Shown: positions 5,302 through 57,825 of the stretch, piece by piece
How the letters are laid out: every line of letters begins with the position of its first letter
Numbering within the stretch: the stretch's first letter is position 1
DNA from: Raillietiella orientalis
Lineage: Eukaryota
Reading direction: 5' to 3'
NCBI GenBank assembly: GCA_036172245.1
Contig: JAYWIR010000137.1
Location: 1-64,000, forward strand
DNA length: 64,000 bases
The notes under the pieces: generated by a model
Seen by the model: only the letters and a program-made list of their open reading frames with translations
Told to the model about the DNA's origin: nothing
The model's database searches: none
Translations under genes and position numbers: made by a program

Positions 5302-5517
5302 TCCCTTCCCTTACCCTCCCAACTTTTCTTTTCCTTTTTGTTTTGTTTTTTGTTTTTCCCCCTTCCCCCTGCTGCCGTTGTGGACCGTACCGGTCTGCGA
5401 ACCGGTGACCCGGCAGGCTCTGTGTTTCTTCGTGCGTGGCTGGAGCAATGGTCCAGACACCGCACGTCTTTGTAAAAGTTTATTTTCCAATAAACGCCCC
5501 GGCGTAATCCGGGTGAA

Positions 5518-24361: not shown

Positions 24362-24837
24362 AGGGAGGTCTGCAGCATTCCCCACAAACTGGTGGTCGAA
24401 GGCGAGACCTTCGACATCTGGTATGAGGGGAATCTGGAATACTGTGGCTTCTGCAATACGTCGGGTCACCTCAAAAAGAGGTGTCCCAATGTGCAGAGAC
24501 AACTATGCGGTACAATGGGGCACACGAGGGAGGTCTGCCCTCAAGCAGCAGTGCGGGTGGTTTCCAAGAGAATCCTTTAAAAACGCGCCCTGCTGCTGCA
24601 GAAAAACCTGGCGGCGAAAGCTACCGCAAAGGCTGTGCCACCCGCGCCCAAGGGCCAGGCCGCACCCGAGACCCCAGCAAACAACGCCGAACAAGACGAG
24701 GAAACTAGCCAGAAGCTTGAATGGCAGGTAACAACGGCCAAAAAGACGAAAAAAGAGAGAAGATTAGAGAAAAAGCTCGCGTATAGCCAGAAAAAACAGC
24801 AGGCAAGCCAGCAGATTAAAGACTGCAGCGTTATCGT
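24359..24837 (+). mobile_element. Element I, left part: ORF1 knuckle region, A family
   Basis: CGFCNTSGHLKKRC; ends at IKDCSVIV and resumes at 55262. Confidence 0.88.
24824..24837 (+). repeat. Left TSD of the J insertion, TGCAGCGTTATCGT
   Basis: Matches TGCAGCGTTGTCGT at 55262-55275 (13/14). Confidence 0.88.
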
Positions 24838-27259
24838 TTATTACCCGGATGCGCCGGGACGTTTATTAAAATATCAACTGAGAACTGTGTTCCCAGGCAA
24901 GGGAACAGAAAACAAGGAGTAGATTTCCCGGAACGCACTCCGGGCACACTGAGAGTTCGGAACGGGAGGGGGTGGGACAATAAATAAATAAACTGGGTGC
25001 GAGGGCGGGGACAGGGGTATACAGTCTAACCGTTCCTATTCTCAGAACAGGCGGTGAATGCCGCCGATCTCCGTCCTCACTTCTGCTCCAAGATGTGGCC
25101 ACCCGGAAGCCATTTGCAGGTTGCAGGCTGTGGTGTCGGGGACCGAAGTTGGGACTGCTCGCATCTGCAATACGTGGCGGGCCCTGACAATGGCGCGGAC
25201 GCAGCAGATGATTGCGACGACCGCTTCAAGAGAAAGTGCGCCACGCGTGTAGAAGCGACGTATCCAACCCAGTGCAGTGTGTACAGGGTGCAGGAGCGCT
25301 GAAGACAGCCGCTGCCACAGCTCCTGAAGGGCACCGCACTCAAAGAGCAAATGCGGATGCGATTCCACCGCTCCGCATTTGGCACAGTTCGGGGACGCAA
25401 ATCCCCCGGAAATCAGGTGCGCCCGCTTGTTGCAGTACAAACCCCAATGGACCAGCAGAAAAGCGTCCTGCTTCCACCGAAGGGGAAAGAGAGTCGCGTC
25501 CAAACACGCAGAAGGAACCACAAATTCATCGATGGGCACCCCGATGAGATCACTCTACCGGAGAAGCCCCTTTGCAAGAATGCAAGGTGTGGCAGCGTCT
25601 GACACTTCGCAAGTCCGCCAGCCGCCCAGCAGTCGGGTTTCGCCTGCGATTTCGCGACAGATCTCCCACCTCGCCGGCAGGTCACTGTCATCTCGCACCA
25701 TCAGTGCACACAGTGCTTCGGCGAGTGGCGTAGCGGCTAGGCGTGTCCACTGGTCCTGGTCTTCCAGCACCTCCCCCACTGGACAGTATGGGGAAAGTTT
25801 CACGCAACGGAGTTCCAAACGGGACACATCCTGTAGCGCTGCCCAGGACGATAAGGCTTCCCGCCTTTAGGCGTTGAAGTTCGTCGGCCGGCAGGAGATC
25901 CACTCATGCTTTCCCAGAAGCGTGACGAGCTGCTTCAAAGGGAAGCCGAATCCTCTCTGGGCGCGCTCCGTGCGCAGAGGCAACGAACGTAGTGCGTCGC
26001 CACCCGGGCTGCGCCGCGGCAGCAGTCGAACTGGATCACACCAGGGAGTAGTCCAGAGATGCGCACAAAGTGCCAGCATGCGGAACTGCACTAGCAGTCC
26101 GATCCGCTCCAGCGTCAGGATGCCCGATCCTGCATCCCGCCTAAGAACCGCCAAATCCTTCAGGCGTATCCTGGAACTAGCCGGTCTCCACAGTGCGTCC
26201 CGCAAGAGGCGTTGCGTCCGGCGCTTAGCCGAGTAGGGAGGGGGACAAACAAAAAAGAAAGGACGGAGGAAGGGGGCAACGAAAATGTTCCACACGAAGG
26301 CATGTTCCGACAGGAGAAACCTGCCGCCTTGGAACGGGCCCAGAGCAGTCTCGGCCTTGTGAAGGCAGTCCAACCACGCTTCTGCTGGACAGAGGGCGCC
26401 CAAGGGAACGCCGAGGTACTTCAAGCACCTGCCCGTGAGGATCCCCTGGCGGATCCAGTCGGACTGCACCTCCCACGTAGAGCCAACCGGTACAACGGTT
26501 GATTTCGTCCTGTTCACGCTCAGGAACGCTCCCCGACGAATGAGCTCGAAGAAGTCCTCGAGCCTGGACGCCGGGGTGGACATGGGCAGCAGCAGGAGAA
26601 GGTCGTCAGCATAGGCGGCCACGGCCAGTGTTCCCGGACAGGAGCTCGGCAGGTTGGCCAGCGTCAGCCTGTACGCCCTCAGCACCAACTCAAAGAAGAT
26701 GCTGAAGAGCAGGGGGCTTAAGCTGTCTCCCTGCCTGATACCCCGCCGTATGGGAACAATGTACACGTGGCGCCCGCTGAGAGAGATACAGCATAACGCG
26801 TGGCATCAGCAGGAGTGCAAGTAGGCGATGAGCTGCGTCGAGAGGCCTAGGCGTCCCAGAAGCTCCAGAAGGAGGTCCTGGTTTTCGCTGTCGAACGCTT
26901 TGCAGAGATTTACGGCGACTGCTAAGGCTATGGAGCCGCACCTTTGCTGAGGGGAGAGAAGCGGGAACATCTCCCGTCTCACGCATCAGCGAGAAAGGGC
27001 TTAGCACCAGGGGGACGAGCTCCGCTGCGAAGCACTGAAAGAACTCCGCGGGCAGGCCATCCTCCCCAGGCGTCTTCCGCGTCTTCAGGCCCACTATGGC
27101 AAAAGATACTTCTTCCGCCGTGAAGGGCCAATCCAATCTGGCGCTTTCCCTCTCGTCGATAGCAGGGTTCCGCGTCGGAAGAAGCAGCACGGAGAGACTG
27201 CGTTCCGTGGGCTCCTCCGCGTACAACGAGGAGTAGAAGCGCTCGACTGCGCGGTGCAC
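24838..27259 (-). mobile_element. Element J, 3' part: RT with internal deletion, zinc finger, 3' end
   Basis: PGEDGLP, GIRQGDSLSP, YADD; collinear with C including the 3' UTR; terminal motif 24868-24838. Confidence 0.9.
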
Positions 27260-27413
27260 ATCGGACGCAATTGTTGTGCGCTTCTTGGATAGGGAGTTTT
27301 TATTTTCTGGTGTTTCGTGTGTGTTTCGCGGCCGTTGACAGGCGGAAATGCCTGTGAACGCCGCAGTTTAAGGTGAGGGAGGCGGGAAGACCGCGTCTCC
27401 CAAGCCAAAGGAG

Positions 27414-28958
27414 GTGGGATCACGCCCCACCGCTTCTCAACCCGCCACTACGGCGAGGGCGTGGAGCGCGGTGGCAGCGGCGGAAACGCCCGATGTCGCC
27501 GCCGAAATCCAATCCTACATCCAGGAGGGCTACAATCCGGCCCTCCTGTACAAGGTAGGCAATTTATATTCCCCGTTAAGGGCGAGAAAGTTCGGCAATG
27601 CCATCAAAAAGATGGGCATTGCCGACCATGAAATTCTTTGCCTCTCTATACGGAGCGGAGGGCAGTTGGCGGAGCTCATCTGCAAGGATGCAGCTCTTAC
27701 CCACAAGATGCTCTGCACGCCCGTACAATTTGAGGGCAGGAATTTACTCCCACACACGGTGGACCACTCCATTGTGGTCCACCTAACAGGGACAACAGTG
27801 CGGATGGATGAGAACGCCATCCGCGCTGAACTGGAAAAATACGCAAGCGTTTTCGCGATGTGGAGAAAGCCCAACACCTTCGGAGTGAACGGTGCATTTA
27901 GTGGGCGAGTAGGCGCGCGCGTGACGCTTCGAGAAAGCGTACAGCTTCCCCACAAGCTCCAAATTGGCGACGAGTTCGTCGACATTTGGTTTGTGGGGAA
28001 ACCTAAATTTTGTGGAAACTGTAAGTCGTTCGGGCATTTGAAAAAGCGGTGCCCGGACGCGGTTTGCCCAACGTGCGGCGCGAAGGGCCACACCAAAGTG
28101 GTGTGCCCGATGAACGTCGCTCCAACGCCGGAACTTCCGCAAAAGAAGGAAGGGAAGGCAAAAATAGTGATAAACCCCACAAAAGGGGATCAGCCGTCGG
28201 CTCCGACAAAAGTCGCGCAGCAGGAAAGGGACACGGTACAGGAGCTCCCGGAAAAGACTGCCGACGTGGAAGGCTGGCAGCTGGTCACCCGTAAAGTAAA
28301 AATCGTTAAAAAAACCGCGCCCGCACCGGCGAAAGTGGTGAAGGGCAAGGGGAAGGTCGCGCCACGCCCAACAATCAAAGCGTGCAGCGTGGCCATCAAA
28401 CGCGTGCCGGCGATCGATACTCGCTCCGCTGACGGATCGATGCGACGTGACGTCACACCAGCTGTTCAAGCCGCCGCCGCGCGAACGCCGACGCCGCGAC
28501 AAAGTCGCGAGCCCAGCGTGAGCAGCGACGACCGGGACTTCAACAAGGCGGCGAAAGAGTTGGCAGCCATGCTCCAGCAGCCTCCCAAGGCCCAGAAGAA
28601 GGCCTTGAGGCGTCCGGCTCAGGCGAAAGAACCGGAGACTTCAAAGTCCGAAGCCGAAGCCGGCAACGCTCCGGCTGTCGCTCTCCCGAAGCGCAAAGCG
28701 GGCCGCAAGGTAGGCGACCCGCGGCGCTCCGCACCTCCACTGGCGGAGGAGGAAATGCGGTCGGACCACGACGACGAGGAGGCGATGTCCGCGAGGTCTC
28801 GCCACTCCTCGCCGGAGACGTCCCTGGCCAAGCAGGATCCTCCAACCACCACCATAACCACCGACGGACCGCCTCATTGCGAGCAACAGCCCGTCGCAAT
28901 GGATACACAACTCCCGCCTGCTGAACAGCAGGCGGAGGACGGTAAGCAAGCACAATAA
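27414..28958 (+). CDS. K ORF1, largely open
   Basis: CGNCKSFGHLKKRC and CPTCGAKGHTKVVC. The likely original ATG at 27348 is followed by an early TAA. Confidence 0.75.
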   Translation: MGSRPTASQPATTARAWSAVAAAETPDVAAEIQSYIQEGYNPALLYKVGNLYSPLRARKFGNAIKKMGIADHEILCLSIRSGGQLAELICKDAALTHKMLCTPVQFEGRNLLPHTVDHSIVVHLTGTTVRMDENAIRAELEKYASVFAMWRKPNTFGVNGAFSGRVGARVTLRESVQLPHKLQIGDEFVDIWFVGKPKFCGNCKSFGHLKKRCPDAVCPTCGAKGHTKVVCPMNVAPTPELPQKKEGKAKIVINPTKGDQPSAPTKVAQQERDTVQELPEKTADVEGWQLVTRKVKIVKKTAPAPAKVVKGKGKVAPRPTIKACSVAIKRVPAIDTRSADGSMRRDVTPAVQAAAARTPTPRQSREPSVSSDDRDFNKAAKELAAMLQQPPKAQKKALRRPAQAKEPETSKSEAEAGNAPAVALPKRKAGRKVGDPRRSAPPLAEEEMRSDHDDEEAMSARSRHSSPETSLAKQDPPTTTITTDGPPHCEQQPVAMDTQLPPAEQQAEDGKQAQ

Positions 28959-29839
28959 ACACACCAACGCGTGGACTCTCCTTTTGCCGGCGACTGCGCG
29001 TAATCTGTTGGAACGTCAACGGGTTGCGCGACGACGGCAAGAGGAGAGAAGTGGCCGCCAGCCTGCGGGACTTCGACCTGGCGCTTCTGCAGGAGACGCA
29101 CGTACTCTACGCAGGGGAGGCCCAGGAAATCGAACGGATCGCAGGAGGGCGGCTCGTATACCAAAACGGGAGAGACCACACCCGCGGTGTGGCTTTCATG
29201 CTGAAGCCAGCCGTCGTTAATGCGCTGCGCGACGTGCACTTCGACGGGGATGGTCAAATCGGGCATCATGTTGCCAAGTGGTCCGACGCGATCGACCACG
29301 TCGTGACCAACGTTTACGCGCCCGGCACGAGCCACAGGCGCGGGGAACGCACTGCGTTCTTCGAAGGCCTGCGGCGAGATTGGCTGGCCGAAGCAGACAT
29401 GCGAAAGGCGCACCTCATTGCCGCGGACTTTAACGTCCGCCTGCTGGCAGGTGCGCCCGACATTCGCGCACAGCTGGTCAACGAGATGTGCGCTGCCATG
29501 CACGCGCGCAACTTGTTGGCCGGTGACGCCGGGACGGAGACGAGGATCGACCACATGTTCCTCGACAACCACTTGTGTTCGCGGGAGGGAAATCGAGGGG
29601 CAGTGCCATCCGAACTCTCCGACCATCCCCGGCTCGTGCTAGAAATACACCCGCGCGGTAGAGGTCCACCCTCCACAGCGTGGCGTTTGCCAGGGGACTG
29701 GTTGCGCCTCGCAGGAGCAGCGCAACATCTTCGCTTGTTCCTACAAGGCTTCCATCTGCAGTCACTCGCGGACTGGGACGACTTGAAGAGCTCAGTCCGC
29801 GAGTTCTGCGACCAGTTTCCCCTGAACCGTCTCCCTTCA

Positions 29840-29849
29840 GGTTTCGGCG
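29840..29849 (+). repeat. Target/TSD copy 1, GGTTTCGGCG (L/N target)
   Basis: Related copies at 41543-41552 (GGATTCGGCG) and 47206-47215 (GGATCCGGCG). Confidence 0.8.
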
Positions 29850-32800
29850 TTATCACCCGGGTACGCCCGGGGCGTTTATTAATAAACTTTACATGCGTGG
29901 TACAAGGCCCCACCACGGCCGTAAACCCAGGACCTGTCGGGACACCGGGACGCAGCCCGGCGTGGCACTCCCCGACAGCGAAGGGGGATGGGGATAAGAC
30001 AAAAAGTAAAATAAAAAGAAACAAACAAAAAGAAGTTGGAGGGCAGGGAAGGGATCACTGTTCGCTGTGGAGAGGGCCCATCCGTCGAACGAAGCCCTCG
30101 AGGTCAGTCCTCATATTCCCAAGTTGAAGCCATACGGCAGCTCTTCGCAAGAAGCGTTGGGCATATGGGATGACATCCCTCGCGTGTTGACCCACTCCTT
30201 CCTTGTTGGTGTCGCTCCATGCCGCCACGATGCCTCGGACGCAGCACAAGGCTGCAAGGGCTGCGGCTGGCTGCAGGGCGTCCTTCACGAAGAGGGGCCG
30301 AAGAACGTCTCTAGGGGAACTGCCCGTTGGGAGACCGAGGATCGTCCCAAACCGTTCCCAAAGGGGACGAAGGGCAACACAGTCCACAATAAGGTGAGAG
30401 AGCGATTCCCGCTCTCCGCACCTGACACACGCAGGATCCACAGCTCCCCTCGTCCGGTGGAAGCGGCGCGCGTTGCAGGGTAGACCCCAGTGCAATAAAA
30501 GCAACGCCGACTCTTGCCACTTGAGGGGCAGGATCCTGGATTCCTTCATCACCGGGGGCCACTTCAGCTCATCCCTGGGGATGGCGAGCAGCTAGCCCCA
30601 TCATCTTAGTCCTCGCGGCTGGAGGGTCAAGGTCGTGGCGTCTGCCAGTTCTCCTGTTGTCCAGCCGCTGTTCAACTTTTTGCGTCCCTCGATGCAGCAG
30701 GAGACTTGCCACCTTGGCGTCCGGCTGCTGTGAAGTGCCCTCTTTAGGAAGGGCAGCGCCGTAGCTAGACAGGTCGTCTCTGCCCACGTGCATCTTGCTG
30801 GACTCTCCAGGGTAATTCCGCAGCGTGCAGCGGGCGTAGGGGCTGCATCGGAGACCATTCCACGTCTCGTGGCTTGTCTTGTAAACCACTGCCCACGTTC
30901 CAATATTTTCCTCCAGCCAGGCGGGGGAGTTGGCGGGGCAGCAAACCATCCAGCTGTTCTCCTTGGCCAATGTTGCCATGCGCCCGAGCAGTAGGCCGCA
31001 TCTTCGCATCTTCCGGCCACGGCTGAGAAGAAAAGACGCGAGTCCATCGCACCGGGACACACGGCTGGCCAGGAGGCGGGCTGGAGTGCACCAAGGGGTG
31101 CACCACATCTTCGCTGCGATGGCGAGGGTTTGCCACCGCAGCTGCTTCTCCACGCGCTCCAGCGTCAGGAGGCCAAGAGCGCCGTCCCGACGCAAAGCGC
31201 ACAAGTCCTTCAGTGGGAATCGGGGCCTCCCCTTGCCCCAAAGGGCGATACGGAGGAGGTCCTTCGTCCTTTTGTTGGAAATCACGGTGGGAGGGCAAAC
31301 AAAAAGCAAGGGGCGGAGGATGGGGGCCGCGAAGGAGTTCCAAACCGCGGCCCGTTCCGGCAAGTGAAACTTGCCTTCCAGGAACGGGCCGATCGCCGTC
31401 TCGACTTTTTGGAGGCAGCTGGACCACGCTTCCGCAGAAGAGTAGTCCCCCAACGGCACACCAAGGTACTTGAAGCACCTCGCCGTGGGGATCCCCAGAC
31501 GGACCCAGTCCTGCTGCCCTGCCCACGCCGCACCTCTTGGAACAACCGACGACTTCGCCCTGTTAACATGCAGTCCGGTCCCGCGGCTGAGCAGATCGAA
31601 GAAGTCTCCGACCGCCTTTGCCGGGGTGGACATTGGCAACAAATGCAGAAGATCGTCGGCGTACGCTGCAACGGCGGGCGTGCCGGGGCACGAGCTCTGC
31701 AATGGGGCCAAAGTCACCCTGTACGCTCTCAGCACCAACTCAAAGTAGGTGCTGAAGAGCAGGGGCTGAGGCTATCTCCCTGCCTTATGCCCCGCCGCAC
31801 CGGCACGCCATACACCTTTTGACCGCTGAAAGAGACTGTAATTATCGCATTCCGCCAGCAAGAGCGCAGGTAGGAAATCAGGGAGGGTGGAAAGCTCATG
31901 CGACCCAGGAGCTCCAAGAGAAGTTCCTGATCTACACAGTCGAACGCCTTGTGGAGATCGACTGCGAGCGCTAGGGCCCCCTTCCCCGCCCGGGGGTCCC
32001 TTCCCAGCCCGGCTTGCGGCCCCAATGTGGGGTTGCCGACTTTCCCTATCCTTTTCTTCTCTCTTCTCTGCAGGTGCCCCCATGTGCTTGCGAAGAACAG
32101 GTTGGCATCCATACTTCGCCCGGGAACAGCATAAGTCTGCTCCGGGCTAATTACGGATTCTGCCACCTGCCCCAGACGCGAAGCCCATAGCCCTGCTATC
32201 AACTTGGCGTCCGTATTCACGATTGTGATCGGACGCCAGTTCTTTAAATTCCTGAGGTCTCTCCCTTTCGGAAGGAGCCTCACTCTGGCTGAACGAAACC
32301 AGGCGGGAGCATCGCCTTCGTCTCGGATCAGCCTGATCAACTTAAGCAGCAGGGGTGCCAGCTCTTCCGCGAAGCTCTGAAACAACTCCGCGGGCAAGCC
32401 GTCTTCCCCTAGAGCTTTACGCCTCTTGAGCCTTTTGATACCGGCGAGAATTTCGCCGGTGGTAAAAGGCTCGTCGAGGCTTTCCATCTCCTCCTCCCCT
32501 ATTGCCGGGGCGCCATCCGGAAGCAAGCGCCGAGAGGCGTTTCGATCTGGGGGCTCCCTGGCGTAAAGGGAGGAATAGAAACTCCGCACGAGATGCCGTA
32601 CCGACACCGGGGACGAACATTCCCGGAACTGGTCGTCCAGCAAGCTGGCCGACCCGGATTGCCTGGCTTGGCGTTCGGCCCCGGCGCGGTCCTCGGCCAG
32701 GCGACGGACATTAGGGGTTCTTTCGTACCTACGAGCCTGTAAATAGGCCCGATGGTTGCGAGCACCCTTGATGAATCCGGATGGCAGGCGATCCAGGGGG

Positions 32801-33191
32801 AACTGCTCACAGAACTCGCGGACCGATTCCTTAAAAAGGTCCCAGTCCTGGATATTCCGGAGCGTGACGCCTCACAGGTATTCGCGAAGGTGTTCCTTCG
32901 CACCTGAGAGTCGCGTCCAGTCCCCCGGCAGACGCCAATCCCTGGATGGCGGTCCTTTGTCGCGAGGCCGCATCTGGAAAATTAGCCGGGAATGGTCCGA
33001 CAACGTCGACACAACCCTCCCCCGTTTGCCGACGCGTGAACACAGGTCAGCGTCCAGGAAGACGTGGTCGATGCTGCGGACCATTCCTTTCTCACCCGCG
33101 AACAAGTTGCGCGCACGCATGGCGACGCACAACTCGTTCATCGCGTTCACTTGTGTTTCCGGCTCACCTGTTAGCAGGCGGAGATTAAAAT
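29850..33191 (-). mobile_element. Element L, 3' part (ORF2 from FNLRLL to the 3' end)
   Basis: Nearly identical to N ORF2 and 3' UTR but frameshifted; terminal motif 29881-29850. Confidence 0.92.
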
Positions 33192-36100
33192 TTATCACCC
33201 GGTCACTTAGGGGCGTTTATTAATAATAATAAACTGGTCAGGGACAATGTCCCCAACCAACAGAACGACAGAGAACATAGAAAAGTTACCGACACGCAGG
33301 CCTGGTAAACAAACCGCTCGCAGCGTGGCGGGAATGAGGGGAAACAAACAAAAATCAAAAACTGGAGGGAAGGGAAAAGGGTTTTTGGTTAGGCTCCGTA
33401 CTCACGGGGATTTAAACGATGAGCACCTCAAATGTTCCGGAGCCTATGGGGACGCGGGTGTAAAAAGAAAATACAAATTTAGTTTATGGAGGGTAGGGCA
33501 ATGATCACCGGGTTGGCCGCTGATGAGGGTGTGTAAACCGGCGGTGTATTGCGGCGAGATTCCTCTTTGTCTCGTCTGTGAAATGAGGCCATCTAGCGGA
33601 TGCTTCCATGTAGAAGGATGCTTTGCTGATTACCTCTTTGTGCTGTCCGTTGATTACCAACGCCTGGCGGACGGAAACTATCGCGCGTATGAAACCGATG
33701 ATTGCAATCCTTGCGCTTACTGAAAGCCCGCTCAGCGTGAAGAATCGTCGCAGCAAGTCTCTTGCGGTGTCCTCGGGATGCAATAGTGCTGTTGCCAGCC
33801 TACGCCACAGTCCTTGTAGGACACCGCAGTCCAGAAGTAGGTGCGGAATCGACTCCGTCGATCCGCACCGAACGCAGTTCGCAGACGCAAGTCCCCCGGA
33901 GTCACGATGCCAACGCTCGTTGCACTGAAAACCCCAGTGAACGAAAAGCAGCACGGCTTGTTTCCAAGCAAGGGGGAGCAGCGAACTGTTTATACACTGT
34001 GGAGGGACTACAAGTTCTTCGGGGGTGACAGGAAGTTCTTCTGCCCACCGGAGGAGTCCCTTTGCAGTAACACGAGGAGTGGCGGCGTCCGCCAACTCAC
34101 TTGTCTTCCAGGTGCCAAGGAGTTTGATTCTTCCCGCTATCGTGCAGGAAACCTCCCACCTCGCCGGTTGGTTACTGTCGTTTCTTGCCCTGAGGGCAGA
34201 CAGCGCTGCGGCAAGAGGCGTGGCAGCCAGGGTAGAAAACTTCACCTCGTCCTGCAGTCCTTCTCCCAAGGATCGTGGAAAAAATTGGCGCAGGGGGCGA
34301 AGATCTTCAGGGCGTATTCCTTGGAACGCCGCCCAGGATTCAACAGACTCCTGCCGCCAAGCTTCAAAGTTCATTGGGCGGCAGGAGATCCAAGAGTGTG
34401 CTTCCAGAAGTGCGGTCAACTGCCGCAATGGAAACCCGAAACCCCGCTTCCTGTATTGAGTGCCCGGCAAAAGCGAGAGAAATCCTCCGCTGCCGGCGCA
34501 TCTCCGCAGGAGAATGCGAGCTGGCACGCACAGGGGGGATGTCCATAGCTGGGCACACAGTGCCAGCAGTCGGAACTGCACCTGCAGTCCGATTCGCTCC
34601 ATTGTCACGATACCCAAACCAGCATCCCGACGCGGAGCTGACAAATCTTTTTGCGGATCCTGGATCTCGCCGGACCCCAGAGAGCGTTTCTGAGCAGGCG
34701 CTTAGCCCGCTGTTTTGCCGCATAGGGGGGGTCCAAAACAAAAAACAGGGGACGGAGGAGGGGGGCCACAAAGGTGTTCCAAATAGTCGCCCGTTCCTGC
34801 AAGGTAAACTTGCCGTTAAAGAACGGGCTGATGGCCAACTCTGCTTTCTGAAGACAGTCCGCCCACGCTTCGGCTGCGCCGAAAGCGCCCAACGGAACGC
34901 CAAGGTACTTAAAGTACCCGCCCGTGGGGATCCCCAGGCGGATCCAGGCGGACTGCCCCTCCCACGACGTACCCACAGGAACGACCACGCTCTTCTCTCT
35001 GTTCACGCTCACGCCCGCTCCCCGACGAATCAGGTCGAAGAAATCCTCGACACTGGACGCCGGGGTGGACATGGGGAGCAGAAGAAGCAGGTCATCAGCG
35101 TAGGCGGTCACGGCAGGCGTTCCCGGGCAGGAGCTTGGCAAGTGAGACAGCGTCAGCCTGTATGCGCTTAGCACCAACTCAAAGAAGATGCTGAAGAGCA
35201 ACGGGTTTAGGCTGTCGCCCTGTCGGATGCCCCTACGAACGGGAATACCATACACGCGGCAGCCGCTAAAAGTGATGCAGGTTAGCGCGTGGCGCCAGCA
35301 CGCCCGCAAATACAGCAGGAGTTGCGCCGGGAACCCAAGGCGTTCTATAAGCTCCAAAAGAAGCTTCTGGTTTACGCAGTCGAACGCCTTGTGGAGATCG
35401 ACCGCGACCGCCAAGGCACCTGGCGTTCCCTCCTGCCGTCGGCGTCTGTTCTTTTTGCTTGCGGCAGTGACTTTCGCAGCAGCCTGGCTTTGCTGCGCCA
35501 CAACTTCCTGCAGCTGCATCCATGTACGCGCGAAAAGGATGTTCGCCTCCATGGATCGTCCCGGAACCGCGTAGGTTTGTTCCGGGCTCACCACAGATTT
35601 TGCGATTCTTCCTAACCGCGCGACTTACAGCTTGGAAGACAACTTGACGTCCGAGTTCACCAAGGTGATCGGACGCCAGTTGTTAAGTTGGCGCAAGTCT
35701 CCGCCTTTCGGCAGGAGACGCACCTTCGCTGAGCGGAAGGAATCAGGGACATTCCCGGATTCACTCATCAGCGTCGCGAGTTTCAGCATCAAAGGAATTA
35801 GCTTAACTGCAAAGCACTGATAAAACTCTGCAGGGAGCCCATCCTCGCCTGGCGCCTTTCGTCTCTTCAGCCCAGCGATGGCGGACGAAAATTCATCCGC
35901 CGTGAAGGGCTCGTCGAGACGTTCGCGTTCCTCCTCGCCGACAACACGAGCATCCTGAGACAGGAGTATCTCAGAAAGAATATCCTCCGTCGGGGATTCC
36001 GCGTAGAGCGAGGAGTAGTAGCGTCTCACAATGCGGCGTACTTCGACTGGGGCCGAACATTCCTGGCCTTTGTCGTCCAACAGGCATGCTGCTCCGGACT

Positions 36101-41542: not shown

Positions 41543-41757
41543 GGATTCGGCGTTGCCACCCGGGTACGCCCGGGGCGTTTATTAATAAACTTTACATGCG
41601 TCGTACAAGGTCCCACCACGGCCGTAAACACAGGACCTTTCGGGACACTGGGACGCAGCCCGGCGTGGCACTCCCCGAGAGCGAAGGGGGATGGGGATGA
41701 GACAAAAAGTAAAATAAAAAGAAACAAACAAAAAGAAGTTGGAGGGCAGGGAAGGGA

Positions 41758-45354: not shown

Positions 45355-47109
45355 TATTCCTGGGAAGATGGCGATGCGGCGTCCGCCACCTGTTGGGGCG
45401 GAACGCTAGGTGGAGGAGGAGGGTCAGGCGCTGCGTGCACCTGGTCCCCCTCCTCCATGGGTAACGGCGCGTCGAGGGGGTCACCCTTAAGTGGGGTGGC
45501 GCCTACCTGTTGGCCCTCTTCCATGGGGGGGGGGCTGTTCAGGCTCGGCGACTGCAGGGAGGACTTCGCCCCCCTGCTCACCCTCCTCCATTGGGGTGGC
45601 CGGCTCGACGGCTTCCGCGCGTGGGAGTTCCCCCTCCGGGATTCCCACGCTACCGCTACCTTCCTGCTTCTCCTCCTCGCTGGTGGAGGGGAGGCGCCTC
45701 CTGGGTTTCTGAGACTTGCGTCCCGACTTCCTGGGGGGTGCCTCCGAGGAGGAGGATGCACTTCCGGCCCCCAGGTCCGACTCACCAGTGGGGGCCTTTT
45801 TCGCGGGAGCCGGCCTTCGCACGGCCTTGCGTGAGGGGTTCTCACGCTCCGCCAGCGTGGCCGCGAGCTCCTCCGCCGCCTTTGCGAACGCGGCGTCCGC
45901 AGTGTCGACCGGAGCGTCGCGCGGCTCACCCTCTGTGTAAACAGAGGGTTCGTCGTCGCGAACCTCGGGCGCGGCGGAAACGGCGAGGGAAGGCTCGTCG
46001 CCCCGGGTGGCAATCTCGGGAACGGCTATGCGCTCCAGTGCTACCGTACATTCCCGCATGGTCTTAGAGCGCGGCCCAGGTTTTTTCGCCTTGCCGGCTG
46101 TCTTTTTTACCGCTTTCGCGGGTTCCGCGGGGTGCACCTTTTTCTCCTTTCTGGCCTTGACCAGCTGCCAGCCGTCTTGGGCTCCCGCGTCTTCGGAGGG
46201 TTTTTCTTCCGACGCCTGTGTGGGAGGAACAGGGGCTAGCGGCTGCTGCCGGCCAGTATCTCTTTTTGGTCTTTCGACCAGTTTACCGCGTTTTGCCTGT
46301 GCTTTTTTTGCAGCAGGCGGCACCGGAGTGGGGCGTTTAGGGCATACGCGGCGTACGTGGCCCTTCTCCCCGCATAAGTGGCACACAATGTTCGGGCACC
46401 GCTTGCGCACGTGTCCTACTGCATTGCAGTAGCCACAAAAGCGGGGTTTCCCCACGTACCAGAGGTCTACGACTTCGCCATTGACCTCTAGTTTGTGGGG
46501 AAGCCCACTCTCGTTCACCGTCACGCGCGCGGCGGCCTGCCCTCCGAAAAGGCTATCGTAGCCATCGAAGATTGTGGCCTTTGACCAAAGCGCGTGAACA
46601 TCTCCGTGCTTTCTTAACTGATCACCAACCGCAGACCGCGTCATGCGGCTGGTGATCCCTGTCAGATGGACCACTACGGAGCGGTCCATCGTGACTGGTA
46701 GGATCTTGCGTCCGTCCACGTTCAGCGAAGTGGTTATCAAGCTTTGCGCTAAGGTGATGTCCTTGCAGACAACCTCAACGCGCTGACCCCCGCTTAGCAC
46801 GGATAGACCGTTAAGGTCCTTTTCTAACACGTTGGCGTTCTGCATCGCTTTCGAAAAAGCGCGTGCAGTTCGCCCGTCAAAGAGATTGCCTACCTGGTAA
46901 ACCAAGCTGGGCTTGTACCCAGCTGCCCGGTAGGCCGCCATCTCGGCCATGGTTTCCGCGCTCGGCGCGGCCACCATGGCGCTCCAGCTCCTCGCCTTGA
47001 GCGGCGAGGGCGATTCCGGGGCGGACGCCCCTGATTCTGTAGGCTGTGGGGGTGGGCAAGCCTCCCCCACACCTACCTCCATCGTGGTGTCCTCAGGCAT
47101 CGCTGCCAT
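45354..47109 (-). CDS. N ORF1 (two CCHC knuckles), one frameshift in a homopolymer
   Basis: CGYCNAVGHVRKRC, CHLCGEKGHVRRVC; the frame changes at the G10 run 45525-45534; ends SQE*. Confidence 0.82.
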
Positions 47110-47205
47110 CGGACACCAACGATGTTCCACACCAAACAGCACAAGAAAAAACCGCTTCCTTTCGACTCACTCGGGAGCGAAGGAAAAACACGTCCACTCG
47201 CCAAG

Positions 47206-50188
47206 GGATCCGGCGGAGGGCTGAAGAACGACCGGGCATACCACCACGCTCGTCTTCACTCTAGGTCTCCCGACGTTCGGCGCCTGGCGGAGTATAAAGC
47301 TGGGCCTGAGGGACAGACCTGGCAAGCCGGGTCGCCCAGCCTGCTGGACGCCCAAGGCCAAGAATGCTCAGCTCCGGCGAGAATAAACCGCATCCTGCGG
47401 GACTATTACTCCTCTTTGTACGCGCGCAGAACAACGGAGCGCGCCGTGGCGCAGCGCTTGCTGCCGCAAGGCGCCCCCGCGCTGCAGGAGGAGCAGGCAC
47501 ATGAAATCGCGGAGCCTTTCTCGATGGCGGAGATCGTCTCCGCCATCGGAAAGCTCCGAAAGAGGAAAGCACCAGGGGAAGACGGTTTGCCCGCGGAGTT
47601 CTACCAAGGCTTCGTGGCGGATCTGGCCCCCCTGGTGCATCGGCTATGCATGCTGATCCGAGAACAAGGGGACGTCATCAAATCGTTCCGGTCAGCTAGA
47701 GTACGTCTCCTGACGAAAGGAGGAGACAATCGCAACGTAGGCAACTGGCGTCCCATCACAGTATTGAATGCGGATGCGAAGTTGCTTGCCAAGCTTTGGG
47801 CTGAGCGACTGGGACGGGTGGCGGAATCCGTGGTGAGTCCGGAGCAGACATACGCTGTTCCCGGACGAAGCATGGAGGCCAACCTGTTCCTCGCCAGTAC
47901 ATGGTGGCAGTTGCAACAAAGCGAAGACCAGGGAGGTCAAGAGAATCCTGGATTCTCCTCTAACCGGGAAGGGGAGGCATTTCTTGGAAGAGCCGCGCCC
48001 GGTGCCCTTGCGGTCGCAGTCGATCTGCGTAAAGCGTTCGATTGCGTCGACCAGGAACTGCTTCTGGAGCTCCTGGAACGCTTGGGATTCCCGGCCGTCT
48101 TCCGGGCTTACCTGCGCTCCTGCTGGCGCTTCGCTCTAATCAACATTTGTTTTAGCGGCCGGCACGTGTACGGCGTGCCGGTTCGGCGTGGCATAAGGCA
48201 GGGTGACAGTCTGAGCCCCATGTTCTTCAGTATCTACTTCGAGCTGGTGCTGAGGGCATACAGGGAGACTCTGGCAACCCTGCCAAGCTCGTGTCTTGGC
48301 ACGCCTGCCGTGTCGGCCTACGCCGACGACCTTCTGCTTCTGCTCCCCGGGTCCACCCCGGCGTCGGCGCTCGAAGATTTCTTTGAGTTGCTGCAACGCG
48401 GGACGGGCCTCGAGGTGAACAGAGAGAAATCTTCCATCGTTCCAAAATCACCACAACTTTTCAACAATACGGCGTGGGCCGGACGGCCAACCTGGATCCT
48501 TTTGGGGATCCCCACGGGCAGGTGCTTCAAGTACCTTGGCGTTCCGTTGGGGGACTTCTGCGTTGCAGAAGCCTGGTCCGACCGTCTCCAAAAGGTGGAG
48601 TTGGCGATCGGCCCGTTCCGGAACAGCGAGTTTTACTTGCAGGAGCGGGCCGCAATGTTGAACGAGTTAGCGGCCCCCTTCCTTCGCCCCTTACTTTTTG
48701 TTTGCCTCGCCCCTCCCATCATACAGAGACGGACCGAAGCCATCTTGAGGACTGCCCTTTGGGGCACAGCGAGGTCGGGAGTCCGATTGAAACACTTGTG
48801 CGCTCCACGCAGGGATGGTGGCTTGGGCCTCCTTACGTTGGAGCGCATCCAACTTCAAACAACAATTCGAAAGTTAGCCCTTGCGGCTAGCTAATGGATG
48901 ACGCCATGGTGCGATCCGGCACGGCTCCTCGCCAGAAGAGCGACTTGCTGCGAAGAATTGTCCTCGATCCTCGTGGCCTACCAGCGCAGCCTCTCCAACT
49001 GTGGTCCCGATTTGCGGCAGATGGTCGCCCTGATGAGGGAGAATGCCTGTATCTTCTGCATCCCCGCGAACTGCACTGCCTGGCTTCAGGAGTCAGCTTC
49101 CGCGTGGGCTAAGATCAAGGGCGCGAGCGAGGCGGAATACAACTGCCTACGTCTAGGACCGTACGCTCGACAGCCGCTGCAGGACATTATGAACACGCCC
49201 CGGAAGTTTCTGTGGGCTTCTTTCAGCCGCCTTGCCCCCGTTCTATCCTCCCTGAAAAACAGTAGGAGTAGCAACGAGCTGGAATCGTGGGAAGTGTCCT
49301 GCCTCATCCGAGGCACGAAAAAACCTTTAAAGGCGTGGACCACTCGGGAGATCACGGACGCTGCCACCCTGAGCGTCCCGCCTCACGCACTTGCGCGCTG
49401 GGGAGAGCTGCTCGCAATACCTCCGGAGGAGGTGAAGTGGCCCCCAGCGTGTTAAGATTGCGGCACACTCCCGTTGAAGTGGCAGGAGACGGCGTTGCTA
49501 TTTCTGCACTGGGGACTGTTAAGCAGAGCACGCCTGTCTCACTGGACACTGGGAAATGTGGATGCCCGCTGTGTCGAGTGCGGAGAAAGAGAAACCTTCC
49601 CGCATCTCACCTTCGAGTATGTCGCCCTGGATGGACTCTGGAGTCGAATCTCCCCAATCCTCCATCTTCCAGTAGGCGACCCTAAGGAAATTTACCGTCG
49701 CCTCTTTCTGCGTGACGGCCTGCGCCCCGCTGCGTCTCTAGCAGTCCTCTGCTGCGTGCGTGGCATTGTGCAAAGGTGGCACGCCAGAAGAAGAGGCCCA
49801 AGATGCAGGGACGCCATCCATTGGACGACGATCTCTTTAGAGACGGCGACAAGGTGGCGTCTACCTTTCAGAGTTAAAACAGAACTTGACTGCATCTTGA
49901 ACAGGATGCTGAGGACCGACCCAGGCGCCCAGTGATCCCTTCCTTGCCCCCCCCCTCCCCATACAACTGTTTCCCTCCCCGTTGTCTCTCTTTTTGTTTG
50001 TTTTTGTTCTAGTTTGATCTTCCCATGCGCCTCGGGAATGGACCTAACCGGTTTATGCACCGGCAACAGACACGTCAACCAAAGTGGGCAAACCAAGTGT
50101 TTCCCACAATTAACTTTTGAAAGTCTTTATTATCTAATTTTTGTAAAAAATTAGAATGATAAATGCCCCGGCATATCCGGGTGGCAAA
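47206..50188 (+). mobile_element. Element K, 3' part: RT, zinc finger, 3' end
   Basis: Resumes K at G|GGLKNDRAY; PGEDGLP, DLRKAFD, YADD; terminal motif 50158-50188. Confidence 0.9.
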
Positions 50189-50861
50189 CTTCGGCTGCAG
50201 CCGTGCATACGTGGCCAAGGTCATCGAGCAGATAAGCTGCTTCGGACTGACAAACCTGGCGCTCGGCCCTGGCCTTTTAAACCGCCAGACGCCGGACTTC
50301 CGGGCATCGGGAGAAGGTACGCTCCTGTAGAAAGGATATGCTCTACGCGACACTTTTCCCAAAGCCGCGTGGAAGGAGGTGCAAGGGAAACCGGAAGCAG
50401 AACTCGAGGACCGATCTTTTCAGATCGTTCCAGTCCTCGAATTCACGGATGACGAAGCCTTGGAGGTGCTGGCGAAGATGCTCCCCCGCCTTCGAATTGC
50501 TAAGCCAGTCGGCCGACAACCTCCAGACATTCATCGGAGGCCCTTTTCCAGGCGAGAGGAGCTCGAAATCCAGTCTCAGATGATCCGAAATCTCCGACAG
50601 CAGGCGCCCTCTCCGACCTACTCGTGAGAGCAGGCGTTCTTCGAGGAACGCATGGTCCGGCGATCTCTCCATCTGGGGCTCACCAGCAAGCGAGTTTTGC
50701 ACGCGCACGGACGCGCATACCTCGCTCACCAGTTGCTTCTCCCTCAAGCGGCATCTCTCCTCTGTTAGCAGGTGGACGTTGAAGTCTCCTGCAAGGAGGT
50801 GCGCCACGTTGTGGCCGGAGTCGGCGAGCCAGCGGCTGCGCAGGCCACCCAGGAATGCGAG
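50187..50861 (-). mobile_element. J middle segment, copy 1 (APE C-half and linker)
   Basis: GDFN, SDH; ends at ...AAAEV, which continues as HRAVERFY at 27259. Confidence 0.82.
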
Positions 50862-50867
50862 CTTAGC

Positions 50868-52855
50868 AGTTAGCCCTTGCGGCTAGCTTATGGATGACGC
50901 CATGGTGCGATCCGGCACGGCTCCTCGCCAGAAGAGCGACCGGCTGCGAAGGATTGTCCTCGATCATCGTGGCCTACCAGCGCAGCCTCTCCAACTGTGG
51001 TCCCGATTTGCGCCAGATGGTCGCCCTGATGAGGGAGAATACCTGTATCTCCTGCATCCCCGCGAACTGCACTGCCTGGCTTCAGGAGTCAGCTTCCGCG
51101 TGGGCTAAGATCAACGGCACGAGCGAGGCGGAATACAACTGCCTACGACGAGGACCGTACGCTTGACAGCCGCTGCAGGATATTATCAACACGCCCCGGA
51201 AGTTTCTGCGGGCTTCTTTCAGCCCCCTTGCCCCCGTTCTGTATCCCTGAAAAACAGTAGAAGCAGTAACGAGCTGGCATCGTGGTAAGTGTCCTGCATC
51301 ATCCGAGGCAGGAAAAAACCTTTAAAGGCGTGGAGGACTCGGGAGCTCACGGACGCTGGTACCCCGAGCGTCCCGCCTCACGGACTTGCGCGCTGGGGAG
51401 AGCTGCTCGCAATACCTCCGGTGGAGGTGAAGTGGCATCCAGCGTGTTGGGATTGCGGCACACTTCCGTTGAAGTGGCAGGAGACGGCATTGCTATTTCT
51501 GCACTGGGGACTGTTAAGCAGAGCACGCCTGTCTCACTGGACACTGGGAAATGTGGATGCCCGCTGTGTCGAGTGCGGAGAAAGAGAAACCTTCCCGCAT
51601 CTCACCCTCGAGTGTGTCACCCTGGATGGACTCTGGAATCGAATCGCCCCAATCCTCCATCTTCCAGTAAGCGACCCTAAGGAAATTTACCGTCGCCTCT
51701 TTCTGCGTGACGGCCTGCGCCCTGCTGCGTCTCTAGCAGACCTCTGCTGCGTGCGCGGCATTGTGCAAAGGTGGCACGCCAGAAGAAGAGGCCCAAGATA
51801 CAAGGACGCCATCCACTGGACGACGATCTCTTTAGAGACGGCGACAAGGTGGCGTCTACCTTTCACAATAAAAACTGAACTTGACTGCATCCTCAACAGG
51901 ATGCGGAGGACCGACCCAGGCGCCCAGTGATCCCTTCCCTGCCCCTCCCCTCTCACCATACAACTGTTTCCCTCCCCGTTATCTCTCTTTTTGTTAGTTT
52001 TTGTTTTAGTTTTCCCTTCCCATGCGCTTCGGGAATGGACCTAACCGGTCTATGCACCGGCAACCGACACGTCAACCAAGGTGGGAAAACCAAGTGTTTC
52101 CCACAATTAACTTTGAAAGACTTTATTATCTAATTTTTGTAGAAAATTAGAATAATAAATGCCTTGGCATATCCAGGTGGCAAACTTCGGCTGCAGCCGA
52201 GCATTCCTGGCCAACGACATCGAGCAGACATGCCGCTCCAGACTGCCAAACCAGGCGCTCGGCCCTGTCCTTATACTCCGCCGAACGCCGGACGTCCGGG
52301 CATCGTGAGAAGGTACGCGCCTGCAGATAGGATCTGCTGTTCGCGACACCCTTCCCGGAGTTCCGGGGAAGCAGGTGCAAGGGGAACCGGCAGCAGAACT
52401 CGCGGACTGATCTTTTCAGATCGTCCCAGTCCTCGAGTTCACAGATGACGAAGCACCGGAGGTGTAGGCGGAGATTCTCCGCCGCCTCCGAATTGCTAAG
52501 CCAGTCGGTCGGCAACCTCCAGACATTTATCGGAGGCCCATCAATGCGGGAGAAGCTCGAACTCCAGTCTAGAATGATCCGAAATCGCGGACAGCAGGCG
52601 CCCTCTCCTACCAACTCGTGAGAGCATGTGTTCATCGAGGAACGCATAGTCCGGCGATCTCTTCATCCCGGGCTCACTAGCAAGCAAGTTTTGCACGCGC
52701 ACGGACGCGCATAGCTCGCTCACCATTTGCTTCTCCCTCAAGAGGCATCTCTCCTCTGTTAGCAGGTGGACGTTGAAGTCTACCGCAAGGAGGTGCGCCA
52801 CGTTAAGGCCGGAGTCAGCGAGCCATTGACTGCGCAGGCCACCCAAGAATGCAAG
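50868..52855. repeat. ~2-kb direct duplicate of 48871-50861 (K 3' end plus adjacent J segment)
   Basis: Collinear over the whole length, including the K/J junction. Confidence 0.88.
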
Positions 52856-55261
52856 TCGCTGGGCGTAATGCCGGCCTCCGCTCGGCGCGTAGATGTTCGT
52901 AACGACCAGGTCGATCGATTCGGACCACATGAGGAAAAGTTGGCCCACACGACCTTTCTCGTCGAAACAAACGTTCCGCACCTCCTCCGCCACCCTGCTT
53001 CGGACGAGGAACGCGACTCCGCACGTGTGCGCGGAGCCTCGCCGCCTGTGTAGCGTCCCGCCCGCCCGCTCATCCAGATCCGATGCCTGCCGTACGGAGA
53101 TGCTATGTATCTCCTGCAGCAGCAGCTGATCTAACGCGCGCAAAGCGTTGGCTACCGTCCGCCTTTTGTCAGCATCACGTAGCCCGTTGACACTCCAACC
53201 GGCCACGGTGACGCGACGAGCGGACGCGAATCCACGCATCACTGCTGCGGACATGACGGAGTGCTCCTCGCCCCGTCCGGCGAGAAGTCAGCTGGTAGGA
53301 GAGCGGATTGGGAAGCGGAATCGCTCCCGTTCCATGCCACATCGCGCCCAGCTGAGTCCTGGGAGCCGAGGATCATCGCCTCGGTCTCCGTGCAAGAGCC
53401 GAAACCGCCTCCGGCAACAGGCTCGTGCATTCGCACTTTAGCCCGGCTCGCTGCCGGCTTACCCCGGGATGCGCGCTCCATTTGTTTGCACTTGGACTCC
53501 ACCTCGGAGTCCGAGTGCCGGGCGCTTGATTAACGTTTTGCCATTCTCTTTTTGTTCCGGCAGGTGGAGGCTTGCCCTGCCCGCGCGGAGGTCGTCGCAG
53601 TCGCCAACGCAGCTTCCGGAGCTTTGGCTTCCGCAGCCGCCCTCTCGCGCGAAGCGACGGAGACAGAGCACGCAGCCGTAGTGCGTACCTGGGTACGCAC
53701 GTTCTTCGGCGTGCTTCTCTTTTGCCTCCCACCCACCTTAAGGATGGGGAATATTGAAGGGTCAACCTTCTTCTTCCCCTTTGTGGGCGTCCTGGAGACT
53801 CGAGTCCAGCCCGCGTCGGGGACGCCCTCCTGGGAGGCCGACGCCTCCCTCAATTGTTTGGCCGGAGATGCCGGCTCAGGTTTCGCGCTCGCGGCGAGAG
53901 ACGGCTCCGTCCCCGTTATGCACTGCACCTGCTCCTTAGTTGATGCGGGCGAAACGGCGGTCATTGCCGTCGTCCCACGAGGCGCTATTGCAGCCTTCGC
54001 TGCTGGTGCCTTCGGCGTGGAAGACGTGATCTCCACCGCCGTAGGAGTAGACTGCCGTTCAGAGGCAGCTCCGAGGGTACCCGCGCACGGTTTCCCGTGT
54101 ACTCCGCTGGACGCGCAAGCGGACACGGACGGTTCAGCAGCCTTGATTGAGTGTGTGCCCGCACTCTTAGGCTGCTTCGAAGGTGGCGATTTTCCCCCAG
54201 GGCGACGTGGCATCTTTGCCGTCTGCGCGGTTGTCTGGGATAGTGGCTTTCCTGATGCAACCGCGCCCTTATTCGCGGGACCGCCACTCGAAGATGCCCC
54301 GCCCTTCGCGTCCGATTTCTCCCGTGGCACAACGGGGGATCTTTTCGGCGCGGACGGGGTCGATTGTTGGCGGCTTTTCGCCTGTCGCTTTCTCTTCAGC
54401 TCGGCGCACTCTTTGATGGAGTGGCCGAGCTGTTTACAATAGCGGCAGTTGCGTGGAGGGCACGTCCACGGACGGTGGCCCTCTGCACCGCAAATGCCGC
54501 AAGCCGGTCGCTGACCTGCAAATTTAAGGTGGACGATCGCATCGCCCACCTGCAAGTGCGGAGGCATTTGCCTATTATCCGCCATGGTGACACGCGCCAT
54601 GGCAAGTCCGCTGTGGAGAGATGCAATCCTTTTGATCGGATTGTCTGCTCTCCACAGCGCGTGCACCGTGGCGAATACACTTAGTGCAGCGACGAGCACG
54701 CAATCGGGCGTGTCCACCTGGACGGCGGATAATCGGACCACGAACGACTGGTCCATGGCCGACGGGACGACCTCCTTCCTGCGGATATTTAGCAAGGTGC
54801 GGAGAAGGAGATGGACTAGGGATGCCTCTTTGCAGTGCTCCTCCCAGCTTTCGAGCGCGTTAACCGGCATGACGGCCAGGAGGTCGCCCTCTCGGACCCG
54901 ACGCGCAAAAGCTCGTCCCACAAATTTTCTCCGACCCCGTCGAAGATAGAAGCACTCACCGGATAGCAGAGCGCAGGCTTGTAGCCATGGGCTGCATATG
55001 CCTGCAGCTCTGCTTCGTCGGGCGGTGCTCCGTTGGCTGCCGCCACCTTGACGACGGCGGCGAAGCTTCTCGCCGGTGGCGAGACACAAGAATCAGAGGT
55101 GGACCGGACATCTGGAGTAGAGTCTCTACTGCCAGTAGCAGCCTCCACATCCATCTCTTGCTGCAGGGGCTCCGTGGACATCCCAGTGGACGCACTCGGG
55201 CGCACCACACACAAGAAGACGGAAAGGATTCACGTTCGAGGAGCAACACAGAACACGTCCT
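52182..55261 (-). mobile_element. Element J, 5' part: 5' UTR, ORF1, TGATG junction, APE
   Basis: GGACGTGTTC 55260-55251; CGICGAEGHRPWTC, CRYCKQLGHSIKEC; TGATG 53241-53237; WSVNG, LQEIH. Confidence 0.88.
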
Positions 55262-55817
55262 TGCAGCGTTGTCGTCGAGCGTATTACCGACAGCTGCGAA
55301 AAAGAACTAAACGCTACCGATGACAATCCCTCTGATGACTCTGTCAACAGCGAGGAGAGCGAATCGGCGGCGGCGTCTTTCATCGACACCACCATCGATG
55401 TAGCCTTCGCGCGAGCCTCTGAGGAGCTCGCTGCCTCGTTGCAGCCAGAAACCTCCACGGCAAGCAAAAAGGCCGTTAGGCGTCGGACCTCCCCTCAGGA
55501 GTCCCCCACTTCCGACCCCGAGGTGGAGGCCGGAAGCGAAGCCTCCGTTTGCACGGCACCACGCAAGAAGGCTGGACGTCAGTCCACAAAGCCGAGAAAG
55601 CTCGTCTCTCCCGTCGAAGCGGAAGAGATGGCTTCCGCAAGCGAGGGTGCCATGAGCGTGAGAAACTCGCGGGACCCGTTGCCCGAGAGACTCCCACGCG
55701 CGGACAAGTAGGGGATGTAGGGGAAACAGGCCGGAAAGGTGCTTCAGGTGCCTTAAAAGGCGTAAACCCCCATGGACATGCCGCAGGCGTGATCTCTGCA
55801 GAATAAGTGCAAGAGGT
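55262..55817 (+). mobile_element. Element I, right part: ORF1 C-half plus a short APE remnant
   Basis: Starts with the TSD and aligns with A 1148-1670; then jumps to VISAE (A ~1857-1885). Confidence 0.85.
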
Positions 55818-56435: not shown

Positions 56436-56450
56436 TCAGCCTGTTTTTTA

Positions 56451-57814: not shown

Positions 57815-57825
57815 GGCTTTCGGCG

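Follow-up and report, generated by a model that had tools for sequence, protein, structure and literature searches.

A layered nest of L1-like non-LTR retrotransposons with recurrent insertion sites in a 64-kb window of Raillietiella orientalis

The stretch analysed here (the window) comprises positions 1 to 64,000 of contig JAYWIR010000137.1 in the Raillietiella orientalis assembly GCA_036172245.1. It is occupied almost entirely by long interspersed nuclear elements (LINEs), which are referred to by letters. The element under study, J, is a minus-strand, full-length, L1-like LINE which spans 24838-55261 (30,424 bp including its inserts) and interrupts open reading frame 1 (ORF1) of another LINE, I. 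The nest has the structure I > J > K > {L > M, N}, in which each element is followed by those it contains. Elements were mapped by tblastn with the two proteins of element N and by alignment of the junctions against uninterrupted reference copies. The GC content of the window is 54-64%, and LINE homology, determined by self-BLAST and by tblastn with one intact element, extends over 87% of it. Apart from 62869-64000, the larger gaps in this homology lie inside mapped elements, in ORF1 tails, untranslated regions and the divergent family C. Each junction examined falls within another LINE, as in a LINE-only cluster.

An earlier note, made from the DNA sequence alone, had proposed that a 14-bp target-site duplication (TSD) brackets 30.4 kb around J, and that removal of this interval restores an ORF1 collinear with that of element A, an uninterrupted relative of I. 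Both proposals were borne out. The 14-mers adjoin the termini of J exactly, at its 3' end (24838) and at its canonical 5' end (55261); the sequence immediately within the left copy is a LINE 3' end in reverse complement, and that immediately within the right copy is the common 5' motif, also in reverse complement. The two copies agree at 13 of 14 positions. Across the whole window and both strands the 14-mer pattern has eight matches with up to three mismatches (3.84 expected from shuffles), of which just two, at 24824 (0 mismatches) and 55262 (1 mismatch), have no more than one; by hand arithmetic, approximately 0.02 matches at this stringency are expected by chance in 128,000 positions. Element A has the site once (TGAAGCGTCGTAGT, approximately 1161-1174), with collinear flanks on both sides. 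As the exact ends of J adjoin the 14-mers and A carries a single collinear site, they are a true TSD of J. Excision of 24838-55275 gave a reconstructed I (I', 992 bp) which matches A in a single blastn high-scoring segment pair (HSP; I' 4-992 to A 685-1672, 80.4% identity), and the joint is also crossed by one tblastn HSP (ORF1 amino acids (aa) 221-518) and by a 230-aa ORF. What remains of I is a fragment of approximately 1 kb, the left end of which (approximately 24340) adjoins a minus-strand element, Y, at around aa 33 of ORF2. Because of this junction, and because element O is inserted at 55817, I does not form the lowest layer. The homology of J to element E ends at 26992, but a break in J at this point was rejected, since the reading frame of J runs through it and E stops there because D is inserted in E.

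Within J, element K (+) sits in ORF2 at approximately aa 366-371 (approximately 27270-50188). Elements L (-, 29850-41542) and N (-, 41553-47205) both sit in ORF2 of K at aa 308-311, and M (-, 33192-39099) sits in ORF2 of L at aa 171-173. The 10-bp target of L and N, target x, is present in three copies, both outer copies being one change away from the middle one, and the TSD copies of M agree at 8 of 9 positions. Local alignment offered a 17-bp alternative for the TSD of K, which was rejected as the alignment to references places this stretch upstream of the site. In-silico excision and alignment, which the earlier note had put forward as its check, yielded collinear elements of 5.5-5.9 kb for J, K and L: J' is 5,509 bp, K' 5,553 bp and L' 5,776 bp, beside 5,908 bp for M and 5,653 bp for N. 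Each reconstruction (I', J', K' and L') is crossed at its excision joint by a single blastn or tblastn HSP, K' regains an 860-aa ORF across the joint, and the segment lengths of the interval sum to 30,424 bp. The nesting that had been described, with K in J, L and N in K, and M in L, is thus upheld at each level by these single-HSP reconstructions, and the chronology I, J, K, L/N, then M after L follows from the junctions together with the collinear excisions. Some details inside J required amendment. J is collinear only when 50189-52184 is removed together with K, and L and N, although both inside K as stated, are two successive insertions into one 10-bp target.

L and N are 94.6% identical over the 3' 3.35 kb and 76% over the 5' 1 kb, with 89.7% in the 1 kb that follows the 3' part; they are therefore two insertions and not a tandem copy of one element. 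Their relative order is not decidable from the junctions; both ORFs of N are open and L has approximately six lesions. N is the only copy with both ORFs open. After excision, ORF1 of K is open and its ORF2 is open over 860 aa; the only two stops of K lie in the duplicated last 1.3 kb.

This duplication lies at the right-hand junction of K and J. The duplicated unit consists of 1,317 bp of the K 3' end and 670 bp of J, and if K is cut out by its TSD alone, the duplicated block 50189-52184 stays behind in J as 1,996 excess bases. A 2.0-kb piece across the K 3' end and the adjoining part of J was duplicated in tandem after the arrival of K. Coordinates of the features are collected in Table 1.

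Table 1. Positions of the elements, target sites and junctions within the 64-kb window
Feature	Positions	Strand	Description
A	1..5518	+	Uninterrupted relative of I, empty-site reference; 3' end adjoins B at 'KAFD' site
E	15138..17290	+	J lineage; 3' end meets F at same nucleotide as J meets I
F	17291..18488	-	Part of A-family ORF1, host of E; 5' end adjoins G at reverse transcriptase 'KAFD' site
G/H junction	20260..20813	.	G 3' end (+, ends 20579) joined to H (-, ORF2 start)
I, left part	24340..24837	+	A-family ORF1 fragment; 24355-24744 = A 681-1071 (84%); tblastn ORF1 aa 207-343
J TSD, left copy	24824..24837	.	TGCAGCGTTATCGT, 14 bp
J, 3' part	24838..27269	-	3' terminal palindrome and A-run 24838-24877; ORF2 aa 366-1206; 89.8% identical to E
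K TSD, left copy	27259..27269	.	CATCGGACGCA, against right copies CTTCGGCTGCA; approximately 11 bp, degenerate; references B and M collinear over site
K, 5' part	27270..29849	+	ORF1 open, 528 aa (27372-28958), then ORF2 to approximately aa 311
Target x, copy 3	29840..29849	.	GGTTTCGGCG; in K ORF2, beside L 3' end
L, 3' part	29850..33191	-	ORF2 aa 171-1215; 94.6% identical to N
M TSD, left copy	33183..33191	.	GATTAAAAT, 9 bp; N has single GATTGAAAT at 44886-44894
M	33192..39099	-	Full length, 5,908 bp; ORF2 with 2 stops and 1 frameshift; 461-aa ORF1 open
M TSD, right copy	39100..39108	.	GATTGAAAT
L, 5' part	39100..41542	-	ORF2 aa 1-173, ORF1, canonical 5' motif at 41528
Target x, copy 2	41543..41552	.	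GGATTCGGCG; between N 3' end and L 5' end
N	41553..47205	-	Full length, 5,653 bp; ORF2 1215 aa (41761-45405) and ORF1 559 aa (45490-47166), both open
Target x, copy 1	47206..47215	.	GGATCCGGCG; beside N 5' end
K, 3' part	47216..50188	+	ORF2 aa 306-1208; 3' end 50188
Tandem duplication	48872..52852	.	Unit 48872-50858, 9-nt filler, unit 50868-52852; 91.4% identical
J, 5' part	52185..55261	-	ORF2 aa 15-371; ORF1 open, 520 aa (53530-55092); 5' motif GGACGTG at 55260
J TSD, right copy	55262..55275	.	TGCAGCGTTGTCGT, 14 bp
I, right part	55262..55816	+	ORF1 aa 371-518 to ORF1/ORF2 boundary; ended by O 3' end
O	55817..56450 (right limit approximate)	-	3' fragment of another LINE, inserted in I

The ORF2 products carry Exo_endo_phos and RVT_1 domains and the ORF1 products zf-CCHC knuckles (Pfam). 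In the 1215-aa ORF2 of N these are PF03372 (E 3.1e-12, aa 32-237) and PF00078 (E 2.1e-19), and the same pair is found in other copies. The elements thus have the features of LINEs of the apurinic endonuclease (APE) type, namely an N-terminal apurinic-like endonuclease followed by a reverse transcriptase (RT) in ORF2, and TSDs of varying length (14, approximately 11, 10 and 9 bp) without terminal repeats. Among solved structures, the top relative of N ORF2 is human LINE-1 ORF2p (PDB 8uw3, 8sxt, 8c8j), a distant one found by sequence search only (E 4.7e-46 over aa 353-720, with the endonuclease domain at E 2.9e-06, compared with approximately 1e-12 to 1e-14 for R2). For zf-RVT the matches are weak, with E values of 0.013 (N) and 8.7e-06 (a K copy) that fall below the Pfam cut-off. 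Most families in the window are only 70-75% alike. No named protein in the collections searched is more than 33% identical to the element proteins, and the nearest database protein is the metagenome sequence P0024 (67% identical). Searches for relatives of ORF2 elsewhere gave one locus in genome_contigs, at 25% identity, and none in viral_contigs. Taken together with the junctions, we consider it likely, with a probability of roughly 0.8, that the interval consists of APE-type, L1-like non-LTR (long terminal repeat) retrotransposons, stacked by successive rounds of target-primed reverse transcription.

The ends of the elements are well defined. A common 5' motif, GGACGTGYTTT, has eight matches in the window (22, 15126, 18479, 39093, 41528, 47195, 55260 and 57805) and its canonical form is carried by A, D, F, J, L, M and N. 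Between the TSD and this motif there are 1-21 variable nucleotides, and the motif is common to families that are only 70-75% alike; this suggests that a start or promoter element has been conserved and that the 5' joins are ragged. At the 3' side, a profile finds 15 ends, belonging to 14 elements and the duplicated K end, with the conserved form AATAAACG-CCCGG-loop-CCGGG-TG(A/G)NAA(A). Rather than a poly(A) tail, the 15 ends have ...CCGG-loop-CCGGGTG followed by 2-5 nt, for example ATAAA. The 5-bp stem is predicted, at least partly, in the folds of all five ends that were folded. Metagenome matches to the 3'-end motif were rejected as relatives: all seven loci are one unrelated, terminator-like hairpin with a T-run, and none matches the element ORFs. 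In 17 of the 18 relations between host and insert or between neighbours the two partners are inverted, only M in L being direct, so that the strands alternate by level. Under random orientation this has a binomial probability of approximately 7e-5, a value which becomes less extreme if lineages with a fixed site are counted once.

Several insertions recur at the same position in different hosts. The E/F junction (17290/17291) falls at the identical base to the J/I junction, and the hosts F and I are 79.1% identical (382/483) while the inserts E and J are 89.8% identical (1931/2151; Fisher p = 1e-9). Identity to F is higher for element A, which has no insert (88.4%), than for I, and site patterns group A with F at 62 positions, A with I at 25 and F with I at 18. 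The G/H junction recurs at 60028-60584, where element X60 (3' end 60349) joins a different host at the same position within one base; the G and X60 inserts are 87-88% identical and their hosts 78% identical for approximately 300 bp and 42-67% beyond. Together with L and N in target x, these cases (E/J, L/N and G/X60) show the same nucleotide and the same orientation, as is found for target-specific LINEs, in a small sample from one window. By hand arithmetic, approximately 0.008 coincident pairs would be expected for 14 random 3' junctions in 5.6-kb hosts. There are further possible cases. The 3' end of A and the 5' end of F both adjoin CACAARGC.TTC.ATT at the 'KAFD' motif of the host RT. At its 3' end X58 shares approximately 70% identity with N; a similar CGCCGAAAGCC comes next, and after it the 5' end of another copy. 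A repeated junction at 57442-57555 and 59889-60004 (90.5%) consists of a K-like 3' end followed by the antisense ORF1 'YKPSLVY' codons of an N-like element; its length is insufficient to separate duplication from re-insertion.

The sequence of events is as follows. Full-length J inserted antisense into ORF1 of the A-family copy I, duplicating 14 bp, and K then inserted antisense into ORF2 of J. The related elements L and N entered the same 10-bp site of K ORF2 in succession, giving the three copies of the site, and M inserted into ORF2 of L. We think it somewhat probable that this stacking is non-random, each lineage recognising its own short site in the coding region of other LINEs, mostly on the antisense strand. 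If the lineages do recognise sites of their own, independent copies would share a landing nucleotide as a result and pile up into a LINE-only island. Since the RNA 3' end and the start of the TSD overlap by one A at most, the site is probably not chosen by base pairing between the RNA 3' end and the nick, and the likelier candidates for reading the target are the endonuclease or another DNA-binding part of ORF1 or ORF2. The antisense bias might, speculatively, arise if the displaced sense strand is the one nicked in copies that are being transcribed. A broader picture is offered tentatively, and with less confidence than site recognition itself: the window may be part of a LINE-only island, possibly of centromere type, populated by at least four diverged L1-like lineages that form a guild, its members targeting one another's ORFs in antisense with nucleotide precision. 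The targets would be A-family ORF1 for J/E, CGCCGAAWCC in ORF2 aa 308-311 for L/N (and probably X58), the start of ORF2 for G/X60, and the RT 'KAFD' motif for A/F.

Several observations weigh against this interpretation. The excess divergence between F and I peaks in the 240 bp beside the junction, in a lysine-rich, low-complexity part of ORF1, where local hypervariability could inflate the value. The A/F case provides one junction per copy, and its TSDs are uncheckable; furthermore, I, which belongs to the A family, is not at a 'KAFD' site but adjoins Y at ORF2 aa 33. The insertions in the window use at least eight different host sites and thus have no single common target. The TSD copies of K match weakly (8/11). 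The 3' palindrome is invariant and so gives no covariation support for an RNA structure, the fold z-scores ranging from +0.19 to -2.71. Decay does not track nesting either, as K' has two lesions, the younger L' approximately six and M three; the difference between K and L (p approximately 0.06 by a Poisson estimate) could be due to chance, or L could have been damaged already when it inserted. All of the evidence comes from one assembled 64-kb window, and among the contigs listed for 24300-44299 from the public runs X1, X2 and X3, which belong to the same study, none bridges a junction by at least 31 nt. X1 contains 0.29 of the sampled words, no RNA run is listed as containing them, and the three runs gave 92, 1 and 1 short contigs respectively at 95-99% identity, evidently not from the same strain. 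The contigs that come nearest are record 5, which has 19 nt of L next to 33191, and record 7, which reaches 30 nt past 39099. The short-contig comparison gives a verdict on the assembly neither way. In one X1 contig 33182 adjoins 39100, the arrangement expected without M, and an N-like paralogue would give the same join.

Some of these points would also fit a real nest in which insertion is untargeted, the region being LINE-only and the repeated junctions being copies made by segmental duplication, a frequent process in regions of this kind. That a junction inside the interval has itself been duplicated in tandem over 2.0 kb favours this explanation, as do the number of host sites in use (at least eight), the concentration of the F-I excess in a low-complexity stretch, and the pair 57442-57555 and 59889-60004 (90.5%), the sides of which are too short to be told apart. 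Segmental duplication predicts equal divergence on both sides of a junction, however, and in the E/F-J/I and G/H-X60 pairs the hosts are more diverged than the inserts (79.1% against 89.8% identity, p = 1e-9; 78% falling to 42-67% against 87-88%), which argues against it. A is without the insertion and yet nearer to F (88.4%) than I is (79.1%), and L and N lie in one target with three TSD copies and yet are 76% identical in their 5' kb. Untargeted insertion would give approximately 0.008 coincident pairs, against at least three that are well supported. This explanation is therefore considered unlikely.

Two further explanations concern the reality of the nest. Reads from many similar LINE copies could have been joined into a chimeric path, as the sequence is very repeat-dense, L and N are 94.6% alike in their 3' parts and none of the listed short contigs of the public runs bridges a junction by 31 nt or more. 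Chimeric joins, however, arise in common sequence and would not make TSDs at canonical 5' and 3' ends, and most of the families, at 70-75% identity, are too diverged to collapse; with reading frames restored on excision at four levels, an assembly artefact appears very improbable. Still less credence is given to a chance match of the 14-mers between two unrelated fragments, I-left and I-right, for which only the GC-rich background speaks: the pair is the sole one of the eight matches with no more than one mismatch, stands at the exact ends of J and has flanks collinear with A in a single HSP. Successive insertion of LINEs into LINEs is thus the explanation that we prefer.

Outside the interval, the left stack (1-22378) is deeper, with the structure H(-) > G(+) > F(-) > E(+) > D/B(-) > {C(+), A(+)}. 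Its inserts are each inverted with respect to their host, and the other halves of the hosts are located beyond the left end of the window. Element C (8073-13512), inside D/B, is a divergent LINE with an ORF2 25% identical to that of N and its own 518-aa ORF1; it has no match to the common 3'-end profile, and its exact ends and TSD were not found. The right end (55785-62868) is made up of short pieces of LINEs of several families, lying in both orientations, and includes a head-to-tail pair, X58 then X57, separated by CGCCGAAAGCC, which resembles the L/N target. The last part, 62869-64000, has no similarity to the rest of the window by tblastx and no Pfam family above the cut-off, and may be the island edge or another repeat.

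A nested stack with recoverable duplications is routine, and here it mainly provides a clean order of events in time (I, J, K, L/N, M). If the proposed targeting is correct, it would offer a testable mechanism by which LINE-only islands, such as the Zepp and ZeppL clusters that are proposed algal centromeres, grow without gene damage, as every new insertion would disable a competitor copy and spare host genes. The targets of site-specific LINEs would thereby reach beyond RNA genes and simple repeats into the coding sequence of rival elements. With N intact and targets of 10-16 bp defined (CGCCGAATCC in the K context and TGCAGCGTYRTYGT for the J/E lineage), the specificity of the endonuclease could be assayed directly.

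Human L1 has a poly(A) tail, a loose TTTT/AA target preference and an ORF1 with a coiled coil and RRM; unlike it, the elements described here have CCHC knuckles in ORF1 and end in a palindrome. The intergenic LTR retrotransposon nests of maize are also layered insertions in which excision guided by TSDs gives a nesting chronology, with little site precision. The layering and the relative dating are the same here, the elements being LINEs with recurrent sites. The known targets of target-specific LINEs are multicopy RNA genes, telomeric or microsatellite repeats or, for Tx1L, a DNA transposon. With the APE-type members of this class (the Tx1 group, R1 and TRAS/SART), the resemblance lies in independent copies at the same nucleotide, fixed orientation, short TSDs and an APE endonuclease with RT; the difference is that here other LINE lineages, belonging to the same superfamily, provide the targets in their coding sequence.

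The closest likeness in cluster form is to Zepp and ZeppL. The cited passages describe Zepp clusters as nested LINEs which target existing copies (PMC3446292, PMC8226300), their arrays being mostly 3' ends with frequent 5' truncation (PMC8226300, citing Higashiyama 1997), and ZeppL clusters as present at Chlamydomonas centromeres (PMC9940879, bioRxiv 10.1101/2025.03.28.645958), with a full-length ZeppL-1_cRei of more than 8 kb (bioRxiv 10.1101/2025.03.28.645958). As in these descriptions of Zepp (Chlorella and Coccomyxa) and ZeppL (Chlamydomonas and relatives), the window contains GC-rich L1-like LINEs whose insertion into copies already present has built a LINE-only cluster tens of kb in size. 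Unlike the Zepp arrays so described, most elements here are full length (5.5-5.9 kb) and do not form a 5'-truncated array; unlike both Zepp and ZeppL, there are several diverged lineages, each with its own nucleotide-precise site, and no poly(A). Beyond statements of the Zepp type, a limited literature library gave no report of LINE lineages with fixed targets in the ORFs of other LINEs. Nesting in itself is ordinary, whereas the lineage-specific cross-targeting proposed from this one window would be a plausible new variation on these known systems.

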